A stretch of DNA of 64,000 nt from Parcubacteria group bacterium Gr01-1014_8 (GTDB taxonomy: Bacteria; Patescibacteriota; Minisyncoccia; Phycocordibacterales; UBA2100), in contig VMGC01000003.1 in NCBI GenBank assembly GCA_007376385.1, positions 69,259-133,258 of the forward strand, read 5' to 3'. A program made the position numbers and the translations under genes. This document shows, piece by piece, positions 45,270-48,171 of this stretch. The notes below the pieces were generated by a model. The model saw only the letters and a list, made by a program, of their open reading frames with translations, searched no databases and had not been told where the DNA came from. The first letter of the stretch is position 1. Each line of letters starts with the position of its first letter.

Positions 45270-46463
45270 CTATTTTTGTATCCAATCATTGGTTTGAAAG
45301 ATCGAAAAATCCAAAGCGCATACATTCGCTGTCTCGATAACCCGATGCAGAGGCTCGTGCGCAAACGATAGATCGAGCGACCAGAAGATTTCCCGTATGG
45401 GCGGCTCGCCCCGGCACAGCGCTTTGAGTTCGAACCAGCGTGTATACGGGCTACAGCGACAAGGACGATTTTGCCATGCACCTTTTATAACCTTCTCGGT
45501 CCCGTCCTCGTACCGTACCGTCGCAAGCGATACGCCGCTCGTGGCCGGAAAGTAAGTCGCAATGCCGAGATGAGGCCTCGCAAATGTAAAACTTCGGCTA
45601 TGGAGCGCAAAGATGATCCATGCGTGCATCATCAATAGACCTAGACAGATGATGGCCATGCGCCATATGTAGGTGCCACTGGGTTTTTTTGCAGGCACGT
45701 CGAACCAAAAAAGCGCGGGCAAGATCGGCACGATAAGCAACATGTAGTATTGTTCAAAGACAACGCCTGCATACACATGGAACGCTACAAAGACGCTCAG
45801 TACGCCTCTGCGATACCGCGCGTCTTTAGAAAGGAGGTACCACACGCCGATCCACTGCAGAGCAAACGCTCCATGTACGAACCATAATTCGACGCCTGCA
45901 GGAATGAGCGGCATATCCTTCGGCAGGCCATCCAAGATATACGCGCGATAAAATTCTGTGACACCGCCAAGTACATACAGAAAGACAACAAGAGCACGCG
46001 CTGTCCATTCCTTGCATGCGGCAAATAACAGCACCGCTGACAGCAGGAGGTGCAGGTATGAGTACGCTTCGCCGGCTTCATATGAGAGAACGAGGAGAAA
46101 AAAAGCTTCCCACAACCAAGTCAGAAGAAAGATGCCGTGTGCCGCGAGCCATCGACCCCTGATCGCCGCAAATAAAGCAACCGTTTGCAGAATGAACAGG
46201 AAGCCATACAGCGCCGTCTGCGAATAACCGTATTGTTTTAAATTTAGGAAATACCATTCACCGCATTGCTGAAAAAACGGCCAGCATGTATACACGTTGC
46301 TTTGGTATGCCTGAACGGTGCCCGCATCATCGCCGACAAACGTTGCGAAGAGGAACATCTGATACGCGAGCGCAATGAAAAATAAGATGCGCGCGTTTTC
46401 GGAAGGCAAAAATTCGCTCAAAGAGAAAAACTTCTGGTAGGAATCACGGAGGCGCTCCAACAT
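45270..46463 (-). CDS. Polytopic integral membrane protein (8-10 TM); family unassigned (HTTM/SdpB-like is one possibility)
   Basis: Multiple hydrophobic helices rich in W/Y/F; first gene of a minus-strand operon that includes the Cys-rich peptide. Confidence 0.4.
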   Translation of the reverse strand: MLERLRDSYQKFFSLSEFLPSENARILFFIALAYQMFLFATFVGDDAGTVQAYQSNVYTCWPFFQQCGEWYFLNLKQYGYSQTALYGFLFILQTVALFAAIRGRWLAAHGIFLLTWLWEAFFLLVLSYEAGEAYSYLHLLLSAVLLFAACKEWTARALVVFLYVLGGVTEFYRAYILDGLPKDMPLIPAGVELWFVHGAFALQWIGVWYLLSKDARYRRGVLSVFVAFHVYAGVVFEQYYMLLIVPILPALFWFDVPAKKPSGTYIWRMAIICLGLLMMHAWIIFALHSRSFTFARPHLGIATYFPATSGVSLATVRYEDGTEKVIKGAWQNRPCRCSPYTRWFELKALCRGEPPIREIFWSLDLSFAHEPLHRVIETANVCALDFSIFQTNDWIQK

Positions 46464-48171
46464 GCATGAACTATATCATGCAGTATCTTTTGCAGATGAA
46501 AAAAAGGATGTACCATTCTGTTGTACATTCATGTCATCACCCTATGCAGACATATTGCGGAATGCGATAGAAAAACGAGTCTTCGTGAAAGCCAAGAACC
46601 CCGGTGATATCGTTTCATTGGATGGCACACATTCGCTGCCCTGGATATTCGATTTTCGTGCGGCAATGTGTGATTCGGAGCATTTGAATGCATTTGCAGA
46701 GCTTTTTTGGGAGCGATCCGAAAATGAATATCCATTTCAGGTCTGCGGAATGGAAACCGCAGGCATCGCACTCGTTGCCGCTATCTGCATGAAGGGCCAC
46801 GAACGAAATAAGCCGGTGAATGGCCTCTATGTCAGAAAATCAAGGAAAAAATACGGGTTGATGAAGGCATTTGAAGGAACCCCGACAAAAGATCCTGTGA
46901 TATTTGTCGACGACCTTATTAACACGGGCCAGTCGGTGCAAAAAGTCCTCGCGGTATTGCATGATGAGGGATTGACCCTTCGTTCCGTATTCACCATCCT
47001 CGGCGTACGGTCTCTTGATGAGTATGCTTTTCTCGATAAAGCAGGCATCACGTATAGCATGCTCTTTCTATCCGAAGAATTCGGCGTACCTTTGGTAAAA
47101 AGTCAAACGCCGATACGGTACGATGAATTCGATGTGCTGTGGACATTCAAAAGCGGGTCGCCAAGCTACCAGCATGTGGTCCCTAAATCCGCCCCGGCTC
47201 TTGATGCCTCCCACGTATACTTCGGCTCCGATGACGGAATACTGCACGCACTTGACCAGAAAACCGGGGCAGAGCTCTGGAAATATCGTATCGGGATGTT
47301 CCCTTTCGGCAAAGGGATATTTTCAACTCCCGCAGTCGCGAACAAAACCGTATATTTCGGAGCGTATGATGGAAATATGTACGCACTTGCTTCGGATACC
47401 GGAAAACGCCGCTGGGTGTACCGAGACGCGGATTGGATAGGCTCGTCGCCCGCAGTTGCGCCGGACCTAGGATTGCTCTACATCGGCCTTGAATTTGGGC
47501 TCTTCAACAAGAGAGGCGGCATTGCGGCACTTTCCCTGGATACAGGAGAAGAAAAATGGGCTATGCGCTCAATGAATGGACTCACGCACTGCTCTCCCCT
47601 GTATATGAAGGAGGAGCGGGCAGTCGTTATCGGCAGCAATGACGGATCAGTGTATTGTTTTGATGCACATTCCGGAAATGAGCAGTGGACGTACAAGACG
47701 AACGGAAGCGTCAAATCATCGTTCGCATATGACGCGAAGCGCCGGCTCGTCATATTTGGTTCTTTCGACGGCAATGTGTACGCGCTCCGTGCAAAGGACG
47801 GCAAGCCTGTCTGGCACTTCGATATCGGCGAAGCCATCTTTTCGACTCCGTGTCTTCTCGGTGATTATGCATACATGCCGTCTCTGAATAAATACCTGTT
47901 TGCGCTCTCGCTGGATTCCGGCGAAGAGAAGTGGCGTTTTCAAATGAGAGGCAGGATATTTTCCTCGCCCGTGATCGCAGATAATTCTCTTTGGATAGGC
48001 TCCAACGACGGCCGGCTTTGCGAACTTGATCCAGCGACTGGGACAGTGCGCTCTTTCTTCCAGACAAGCGAACGTATTGTAAACGCAGTCGCCTATAATG
48101 CGGCATCGAAAACTTTTTTCGTGCCTACACAGGCAAATGAACTCTACAGTATCAAGAGAAAAAACTCATAA
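46462..48171 (+). CDS. Fusion protein: N-terminal type-I phosphoribosyltransferase domain plus C-terminal PQQ-like beta-propeller repeats (start probably internal, about 46531)
   Basis: PRTase motif VIFVDDLINTGQSV; at least five repeats of G(S/A)xDGxhYAhDxxTGxxxW. Confidence 0.6.
   Translation: MHELYHAVSFADEKKDVPFCCTFMSSPYADILRNAIEKRVFVKAKNPGDIVSLDGTHSLPWIFDFRAAMCDSEHLNAFAELFWERSENEYPFQVCGMETAGIALVAAICMKGHERNKPVNGLYVRKSRKKYGLMKAFEGTPTKDPVIFVDDLINTGQSVQKVLAVLHDEGLTLRSVFTILGVRSLDEYAFLDKAGITYSMLFLSEEFGVPLVKSQTPIRYDEFDVLWTFKSGSPSYQHVVPKSAPALDASHVYFGSDDGILHALDQKTGAELWKYRIGMFPFGKGIFSTPAVANKTVYFGAYDGNMYALASDTGKRRWVYRDADWIGSSPAVAPDLGLLYIGLEFGLFNKRGGIAALSLDTGEEKWAMRSMNGLTHCSPLYMKEERAVVIGSNDGSVYCFDAHSGNEQWTYKTNGSVKSSFAYDAKRRLVIFGSFDGNVYALRAKDGKPVWHFDIGEAIFSTPCLLGDYAYMPSLNKYLFALSLDSGEEKWRFQMRGRIFSSPVIADNSLWIGSNDGRLCELDPATGTVRSFFQTSERIVNAVAYNAASKTFFVPTQANELYSIKRKNS

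Follow-up and report, generated by a model that had tools for sequence, protein, structure and literature searches.

A phosphoribosyltransferase–propeller fusion protein beside YcaO in a Parcubacteria peptide-maturation island and its possible part in peptide tailoring

What could a protein that joins a phosphoribosyltransferase to a beta-propeller be doing beside a YcaO gene? The question is raised by a gene at 46462-48171 of a 64,000-nucleotide stretch of DNA from Parcubacteria group bacterium Gr01-1014_8 (contig VMGC01000003.1, positions 69,259 to 133,258), hereafter called the window. The encoded fusion of a type I phosphoribosyltransferase (PRTase) domain with a propeller is named FUS here, and PRE, M397 and A380 are names given to its neighbours. 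The original prediction, made from the sequence, had proposed that FUS substitutes for a missing E1-like partner or RRE, the recognition element of peptides that are made by the ribosome and modified after translation (RiPPs), or that it supplies a moiety derived from phosphoribosyl pyrophosphate (PRPP). The underlying observation is confirmed as real, namely a two-domain gene beside YcaO and SagB, with minor corrections to the number of blades, the spacer and the start codon. FUS is probably a member of a peptide-maturation system and a new peptide-processing component. It may be a PRPP-using tailoring enzyme that acts on a propeller-bound peptide beside YcaO but independently of it, a reading to which we give a probability of roughly 0.4.

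Gene model, domains and immediate partners of FUS

The features on which the argument first depends are the following.

46531..48171, plus strand: FUS, 546 aa counted from M24 (open reading frame, homologue alignments, public annotation)
46531..47085, plus strand: type I PRTase domain like that of orotate phosphoribosyltransferase (OPRTase), residues ~1-185 (profile and PDB sequence matches)
47128..48168, plus strand: eight-bladed BamB/PQQ-like beta-propeller, residues ~200-546 (Pfam, AlphaFold2, Foldseek)
48217..49644, plus strand: YcaO, SagD type (Pfam 3e-44, 152 bits against a cut-off of 25.7)
49647..50375, plus strand: SagB-type FMN dehydrogenase of nitroreductase fold (TIGR03605 5e-36, 123.7 against 78.4, above cut-off)

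The longest open reading frame (ORF) of FUS, 46462-48171 on the plus strand, is uninterrupted over 569 codons and contains the motif VIFVDDLINTGQSV quoted in the original prediction. Its likely start is M24 at position 46531, near which the homologue alignments begin, and the public entry accordingly has 546 aa. That entry (P0001) is 100% identical to FUS, belongs to 'Parcubacteria group bacterium Gr01-1014_8' and is labelled 'quinonprotein alcohol dehydrogenase'. No signal peptide or lipobox was found at the N-terminus and the protein is predicted to be cytoplasmic. Between the end of FUS and the start of YcaO at 48217 lies a same-strand spacer that is indeed short, measured at 45 nt rather than the 46 nt first given, and no promoter-like or terminator-like match falls inside it. 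SagB begins 2 nt after YcaO, and the grouping of FUS with this co-oriented, tightly spaced pair was well founded.

The N-terminal domain proved to be a real but diverged type I PRTase, as had been proposed. The NCBIfam pyrE model TIGR00336 matched residues 60-200 with an E-value of 3.6e-15 at a score of 56.1, below its cut-off of 106.8. Searches of PDB sequences with phmmer returned seven OPRTase/PRTase entries at E<1e-4 with near full-domain matches, and nearly the whole domain was aligned in 2yzk (9e-10) and in 2wns, the OPRT domain of human UMPS (6e-8). Pfam PF00156 gave E=0.0027 and 17.5 bits, under its gathering threshold of 26.3 bits, and a precomputed PF00156 match is present in some FUS homologues. 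The domain appears in the AlphaFold2 model with alternating beta/alpha order and a pLDDT (predicted local distance difference test) of ~90 or higher. Two functional loops can be read from the sequence, a flexible loop R102-K103-S-R105-K106...E115-G116 and a PRPP loop V-D127-D128-L-I-N131-T-G133-Q-S. The latter, within V-I-F-V-D-D-L-I-N-T-G-Q-S, satisfies the PRPP-loop pattern of type I PRTases, in which [TSN]-[ST]-G-x-[ST] is preceded by four hydrophobic, two acidic and again two hydrophobic residues. The former, as R102-K103-S-R105-K106-K-Y-G, is matched in the alignments by RPERKGHG (2yzk) and RKETKDYG (2wns), so that the OPRTase loop R-K-x-x-K-x-x-G is present. The N-terminal OPRTase motif S-G-x-x-S, which stands before Y-[FI]-D and contacts orotate and PRPP, is not kept in the FUS family; the segment aligned to it is variable and retains only W38-x-x-D41-x-R43. 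With this motif lost, orotate is unlikely as an acceptor.

The identity of a housekeeping PyrE was also considered and rejected, since FUS scores too low, has lost the orotate motif and has relatives fused to tailoring enzymes (see below); it falls under the other PyrE equivalog cut-offs as well (PRK00455, 25.7 against 245; PRK13809, 30.7 against 208). A broader and still improbable alternative is that FUS is a small-molecule PRTase, which makes a ribotide for the island (for example a cofactor of M397) or takes part in nucleotide salvage, with the propeller serving oligomerisation or localisation. Such a role would suit the OPRTases being the nearest homologues of known function, the dependence of Patescibacteria on salvage, and R160, which is conserved at 90% or more in close relatives and which, as we read the alignment, occupies the position of the base-binding arginine of OPRTases. 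The absence of a conserved S-G-x-x-S motif and the wide distance from the pyrE equivalog cut-off count against it.

The second domain is strongly supported as a propeller, and the number of PQQ/BamB-like blades, put at five or more in the original prediction, is corrected to eight by the AlphaFold2 model. Beta-prop_ACSF4 (1.6e-58, 199.1 against 133) and PQQ_2 (4.8e-46, 157.7 against 27.6) of Pfam both scored above threshold, so that of the two domain searches that had been proposed, PQQ_2 passed and PF00156 did not. The model, built from 99 homologues, reached a pLDDT of 95.1 and a predicted TM-score (pTM) of 0.91 and places the alpha/beta domain packed on the eight-bladed propeller; the pTM indicates a fixed arrangement of the two domains in the predicted structure. 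When the whole model was compared with the PDB by Foldseek, only propellers were returned, BamB being the best after computationally designed propellers, with target TM-scores of 0.8-0.86 for BamB structures. Two annotations that might be read from this likeness were set aside: BamB itself, in the style of public annotation (TIGR03300 216.6 against 285.2, PRK11138 96 against 423, no signal peptide), and PQQ dehydrogenase (TIGR03075 76.7 against 480, TIGR03074 42.7 against 833).

Three components of a system for linear azole-containing peptides (LAPs), or thiazole/oxazole-modified microcins (TOMMs), are present at the locus: YcaO, the SagB-type dehydrogenase and the Cys-rich candidate precursor PRE. 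YcaO retains a C-terminal P-H-P-F motif conserved within its family, and scores 186.6 with the SagD model TIGR03604, below the cut-off of 219.25. No E1-like, ThiF or PqqD-like RRE partner was detected by Pfam and NCBIfam among the cluster ORFs scanned over 38.4-60.3 kb, which bears out the claim that such a partner is missing. FUS itself gave no Pfam or NCBIfam match to an RRE or E1/ThiF domain, its predicted fold being PRTase plus propeller. In full-text literature searches no account of a PRTase-propeller protein turned up for RiPP or YcaO biology, in keeping with the earlier statement that no YcaO partner of this architecture had been described.

The main rival to a tailoring enzyme takes its start here and is considered possible, albeit doubtful: FUS would be a recognition adaptor, scaffold or chaperone, an RRE substitute whose propeller and/or PRT-like domain presents the leader to YcaO/SagB or to an adjacent or fused enzyme. 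A hydrophobic leader may thereby be kept cytosolic until modified, and the binding of PRPP or a nucleotide would be regulatory or structural only. The lack of a detected E1-like, ThiF or RRE partner among the scanned ORFs is what such an adaptor would explain, and the YcaO domain is preceded by only ~55 aa, too short for an RRE. Moreover, propellers of the BamB type are protein-binding modules. The remaining points for and against this rival come from related loci and from the pattern of conservation.

Linkage to YcaO and the island around the precursor peptide

Linkage was assessed in 77 FUS-anchored loci from GTDB species representatives, in which FUS is 40-53% identical to the window protein. 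Nearly all are labelled Patescibacteria, also known as the candidate phyla radiation (CPR), and the two labelled otherwise were taken as mis-binned contigs. By tblastn, YcaO and SagB were each found in 48 of them and a TPR protein in 51; A380 was matched in 29, a figure that rises to 51 by clustering, and M397 in 28. Where at least 5 kb was available on both sides (38 loci), YcaO was present in 27 and SagB in 29, and YcaO was absent within 10 kb in 11, a gene absent within that distance being one that may still occur elsewhere in the genome. For the converse, metagenome loci were anchored on YcaO: where 3 kb or more of downstream sequence was available, FUS was present in 23 of 37 and absent from 14, and SagB was present in 36; with both flanks of at least 3.5 kb, the figures were 12/21 for FUS and 21/21 for SagB. 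The association of FUS with YcaO is strong but facultative in both directions. It has also survived rearrangement, since the commonest order among relatives, TPR< TPR< A380< PRE< followed by YcaO> SagB> FUS>, differs from the window variant FUS> YcaO> SagB>.

These results divide the proposed partnership with YcaO. The linkage is conserved, but the fusion occurs without YcaO within 10 kb in 11 of the 38 loci and in YcaO-free clusters outside Patescibacteria; the ground for refutation named in the original prediction, a fusion common in the absence of YcaO neighbours, thus applies in part. For the adaptor, it can be noted that in 25 of the 77 loci no more than 300 nt separate the end of the SagB match by tblastn from the match of FUS. 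Against it, about 40% of YcaO-SagB loci have no FUS in reach, so YcaO does not visibly require FUS, and FUS is retained at loci without a recognisable partner enzyme. In minimal loci that lack YcaO and SagB and carry a PRE-like peptide with A380/TPR proteins, FUS is the sole recognisable cytoplasmic enzyme (related loci L034, L041, L054, L056 and L058). The YcaO-free FUS loci and the FUS-free YcaO loci, together with fusions to other enzymes, imply that FUS is not a dedicated partner of YcaO.

Divergent from FUS, a minus-strand string encodes M397, PRE, A380, the TPR protein and two more anchored proteins, and reaches towards the nearer boundary of the island.

45270..46463, minus strand: M397, a 397-aa polytopic membrane protein divergent from FUS (predicted fold)
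44869..45195, minus strand: PRE, candidate precursor peptide of 108 aa, hypothetical protein TSC86214.1 (sequence features, recurrence)
43721..44863, minus strand: A380, membrane-anchored helical protein, the commonest FUS neighbour (51 loci by clustering)
42858..43724, minus strand: membrane-anchored TPR protein (51/77 loci)
41854..42876, minus strand: beta-rich, Cys-containing protein with a membrane anchor, grouped with the TPR family (clustering)
40450..41058, minus strand: rplC (ribosomal protein L3), downstream boundary of the island (profile scan)
57610..58005, minus strand: rpsJ (ribosomal protein S10), upstream boundary of the island (profile scan)

The N-terminus of PRE is basic; a hydrophobic helix comes next, then the motif V-A-R-A-D-A-P and a core rich in Cys, Ser, Gly and Asp. 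To judge from these features PRE would be the obvious substrate of YcaO and SagB. The same layout recurs in a PRE-like family (window; L003-L076, L103-L129) with a basic N-terminus, a helix, A-x-A-[DE]-x-P and a Gly/Asp/Ser tail in which Cys or Tyr may also occur. The A-x-A part of the family motif resembles a signal-peptidase site but sits ~15-25 residues past the hydrophobic segment. Loci with FUS and without YcaO keep A380/TPR proteins and a PRE-like ORF with the helix and A-x-A-D-x-P, the tails being rich in Tyr, Gly and Asp and poor in Cys. Over 158 loci, the median number of core cysteines in PRE-like peptides was 5 with YcaO versus 1 without (Mann-Whitney p=1.7e-5), and at least 3 core cysteines were present in 48 of 64 YcaO-positive and 1 of 12 YcaO-negative ORFs. 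This pattern supports the action of YcaO and SagB on the cysteines, as far as can be judged from composition. The cysteine content tracks YcaO and not FUS, which points to a role of FUS other than supporting heterocyclisation. A precursor feature distinguishing FUS-positive from FUS-negative YcaO loci was sought and none was found.

A380 lies within 6 kb of 52 of 80 FUS genes. The predicted fold of M397 seems to resemble the vitamin-K-dependent gamma-glutamyl carboxylase GGCX (perhaps HTTM-like), a likeness that came from a fold search; sequence comparison gave nothing, whether 25 members were scanned with Pfam or PDB sequences were searched with a profile. M397 directly adjoins FUS in at least 16 loci, and since GGCX needs a small-molecule cofactor, this adjacency and the GGCX-like predicted fold can be counted for the small-molecule PRTase introduced above. 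Membrane-anchored accessory proteins of related islands (L020, L025, L031, L033-L035, L041, L048, L072, L073 and others) carry sequence motifs of a rhodanese-like loop, C-S-G-G-R-A-S-G, or a DsbA-like C-P-Y-C-K, and these motifs point to possible thiol or sulfur chemistry on the exported peptide outside the cytoplasm. The locus is thus a peptide-maturation island, with PRE and the anchored helical and TPR proteins as its core and YcaO with SagB, FUS, ligases and the carboxylase-like protein as its variable part.

The ~16-kb island sits between rplC and rpsJ and splits the head of the S10 operon, where these two genes are normally adjacent, and many related loci, such as L075, L095, L102 and L112, have their island at this site too. 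It could accordingly be argued that the association of FUS, PRE and YcaO is an accident of synteny, an ancestral rpsJ-rplC block having been inherited with a FUS of unrelated function. The position between S10 and L3 in the window and its relatives would fit, as would the origin of the 77 FUS genome loci from essentially one phylum. We regard this explanation as very unlikely, for the adjacency outlasts reshuffling of gene order and orientation among proteins that share only 40-55% identity, and independent lineages have placed the module in peptide-tailoring clusters and fused it to tailoring enzymes.

Relatives in other phyla, conservation and the favoured reading

A HMMER search with the PRT domain alone recovered at least 347 clusters at 50% identity (E<1e-10). 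Nearly all of the best 150 representatives are 530-575 aa long with the same architecture of PRT domain and propeller, and FUS relatives were located in 220 stretches of GTDB species-representative genomes. The family has no dedicated Pfam or NCBIfam entry and is annotated 'quinoprotein alcohol dehydrogenase' or 'BamB'. Longer members join the module to other domains. Formyl_trans_N or Stf0 sulfotransferase precedes PRT and propeller; an Asp/Asn beta-hydroxylase is fused at either end of the module, or to the PRT domain without a propeller; HlyC acyltransferase follows PRT and propeller in three separate clusters and also ends a chain of Peptidase_C39, ABC transporter, PRT and propeller; and a radical SAM-PRT fusion is found among the longer representatives. 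These are real genes, as 16 contigs contain one of the HlyC fusions and at least 24 contain a 1235-aa variant. Neighbourhoods of the module outside the phylum include ABC exporters with C39 peptidase, HlyD, TolC, TldD/PmbA, an Rce1-like protease, more hydroxylases and GNAT.

A particular case is L081 (1-19000 of a 1.5-Mb metagenome contig), with at least nine radical SAM genes, HxsD and a PRT-propeller gene; along its whole length the encoded protein shares 33% identity with the window FUS. Immediately upstream of that gene lies a peptide of 101 aa that has S-H-G repeats and a hydrophobic leader. The same locus encodes a radical SAM-PRT fusion of 971 aa, and its radical SAM portion matches the PADLOC candidate model PDC-M51A at 1.4e-31.

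From the fusions and neighbourhoods it follows that the module recurs in systems that tailor or export peptides or secreted proteins; the FUS family is large and unnamed and marks peptide-tailoring systems across phyla. Fusion to protein-modifying enzymes and peptide exporters outside Patescibacteria would be unexpected for a housekeeping or cofactor enzyme and speaks against a small-molecule PRTase. For the adaptor it is favourable, as no fewer than six unrelated domains for tailoring or export are found joined to the module in the manner of RREs. Fusions alone do not separate an enzyme from an adaptor, however, because RRE-type adaptors and co-acting tailoring enzymes both become fused.

The distinction has to be sought in conservation, which was examined in 112 full-length representatives (112-138 in all) that are 23-49% identical to the window protein, with a median of 33%. 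Twenty-five positions are conserved at 90% or more in the family, and 16 of these fall in the ~200-aa PRT domain: W38, D41, F59, Q70, G73, E75, P80, R102, K103, R105, K106, E115, G116, D127, D128 and G133. Most of these (Q70, G73, E75, R102, K103, R105, K106, E115, G116, D127, D128 and G133) are part of the PRPP loop and catalytic flexible loop of OPRTases or match them in alignment: R102, K103 and K106 fall in the flexible loop, and D127, D128 and G133, with N131, in the PRPP loop. Conservation is 99-100% for D127 and D128, ~90% for G133 and 93-100% for the flexible-loop positions. In the propeller, the only positions that reach 90% are Gly, Trp and Pro residues of the repeat structure. A variable propeller surface is expected of an adaptor that co-evolves with variable leaders; nevertheless, the best-conserved residues of FUS belong to the PRPP and catalytic loops and not to a peptide-binding surface. 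A strongly constrained ligand site combined with a fast-evolving propeller surface favours a catalytic domain equipped with a substrate-docking domain, and the idea of a PRPP-derived moiety fits the conservation better, on the sequence evidence, than a pure RRE substitute.

The favoured reading, a tailoring enzyme, thus brings together PRPP use, a peptide acceptor and docking by the propeller, each of which we infer from sequence, predicted structure and gene context. FUS would act in the cytoplasm and tailor the small signal-anchored PRE, or larger secreted proteins in other phyla. The variable eight-bladed propeller may dock the unfolded substrate, partner enzymes or both, while the OPRTase-like domain would bind PRPP and most likely transfer its 5-phosphoribosyl group to a nucleophile of the bound peptide or of a group attached to it. 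In the window, FUS would be co-expressed with YcaO and SagB, which presumably convert core cysteines of PRE to thiazol(in)es, and it would work beside them without being their obligate partner. The modified peptide would then be inserted or exported, after which A380, the TPR proteins and the carboxylase-like M397 could handle it.

Several points weigh against this reading. To our knowledge, PRPP-dependent modification of a ribosomal peptide has no precedent. No nucleophile is common to all the putative substrates, and A-D-x-P is absent from the HxS-repeat peptide of L081. The conserved ligand residues would also fit an adaptor regulated by PRPP or a nucleotide. Finally, the location of the island between rpsJ and rplC in many genomes means that some of the conserved neighbourhood may be inherited synteny.

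A further and more tentative step, which we think less likely than not, would make FUS the founder of a new class of enzymes that tailor RiPPs and secreted proteins, PRPP-dependent peptide phosphoribosyltransferases, in which a catalytic domain of OPRTase descent would install ribose-5-phosphate, as a nucleotide-like handle or activated glycosyl ester, on a ribosomal peptide that the propeller holds. By the same speculative proposal the module would be reused across phyla with YcaO, radical SAM, hydroxylase, acyltransferase, sulfotransferase and C39-exporter machinery. Should the PRT domain be catalytic on peptides, a new post-translational chemistry would be added. If the island works as proposed, its rpsJ-rplC conservation in many tiny-genome Parcubacteria would suggest that modified, anchored peptides rich in Gly, Asp and Cys matter for cell-surface or episymbiotic biology, and that such peptides are no dispensable antibiotic.

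Known systems and further features of the island

FUS resembles the E1-like 'C' proteins (SagC, McbB) and the Ocin-ThiF-like 'F' proteins with an RRE in belonging to an operon-like unit with a SagD-type YcaO, SagB and a Cys-rich precursor, and its module, like the RRE, is fused to many RiPP tailoring enzymes. It differs from those partners in having neither a winged-helix RRE nor an E1/ThiF fold, its place being taken by an OPRTase-like domain with a conserved PRPP site and a propeller; in a link to YcaO that is non-obligate both ways; and in occurring with Cys-poor peptides also. Two loops are common to FUS and PyrE, R-K-x-x-K...E-G (flexible) and V-D-D-x-x-[NT]-[ST]-G (PRPP), whereas the sub-cut-off scores, lost S-G-x-x-S, propeller fusion and peptide-tailoring contexts of FUS set it apart. 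The eight-bladed fold and repeat motifs of FUS are those of BamB and other PQQ-like propellers, among them the one at the C-terminus of ACSF4/AASDH and the one that AfsK-type kinases have as sensor domain. Unlike BamB-type propellers, FUS is predicted to be cytoplasmic, lacks a lipoprotein signal and scores below the equivalog cut-offs, and there are no PQQ-related genes nearby.

LAP clusters of CPR bacteria were described by Sharrar et al. 2020 (PMC7298704), who reported 110 of them in 93 genomes of Parcubacteria and Microgenomates, with YcaO beside a nitroreductase and a putative Ser/Cys-rich precursor and with mention of a peptidase. The window system is of the same LAP/TOMM-like kind, but the report makes no mention of a PRTase-propeller, of signal-anchored A-x-A-D-x-P precursors or of an island with A380, TPR proteins and M397. 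The HXS antiphage system (PMC13128918), in which the effector HxsA is matured by the radical SAM proteins HxsB/C with HxsD, offers an analogue for PRE: a signal-bearing repeat peptide, modified in the cytoplasm and acting outside it. A FUS relative lies in the HxsD- and radical-SAM-rich cluster of L081, directly downstream of the HxS-repeat peptide; however, the described HXS system has no PRTase-propeller and the window has no radical SAM genes.

The domains of FUS are therefore known, while the architecture, the contexts and the probable chemistry are new, and the locus can be described as a RiPP island of the LAP type whose accessory enzyme is without precedent. Genome mining for RiPPs works by recognising RRE domains and the enzymes that define each class. 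Clusters now invisible to such mining would come to light through a module as widespread as this one, if its value as a marker of peptide tailoring is upheld.

Towards the rpsJ boundary the island contains the following additional features.

50923-52200 and 52197-53564, minus strand: two PaaK/F390-synthetase-like adenylate-forming ligases, facultative island members
54773..57562, plus strand: 929-aa polytopic membrane protein with no family match (18 related loci)

The ligase pair recurs in the island of L086, L103, L104 and L162, and in the FUS-less L086, L103 and L104 it directly follows SagB; it may represent a further facultative tailoring activity. The ~8 transmembrane segments of the 929-aa protein are N-terminal. 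Two ORFs, 41099-41350 on the minus strand and 50564-50911 on the plus strand, were set aside as their translations look spurious. A comparison of the window cluster proteins with PADLOC defence models gave no matches. Downstream of SagB, an unannotated 66-aa ORF at 50473-50673 (minus strand) has a signal-peptide-like N-terminus and a Cys-rich C-terminus, and on the same strand a strong sigma-70-like match, TTGACT-17-TATAAT, occupies 50827-50799. Just past rpsJ, the region 58000-62000 of the window has a GC content of 0.41-0.45 versus ~0.50 elsewhere and includes a RusA-like resolvase ORF at 59844-60296; this low-GC stretch may be the remnant of a mobile element. Distant from the island, a tmRNA gene at 4902-5290 on the plus strand encodes the tag peptide ANKTARGVLSPIQAKDLGLVFA.

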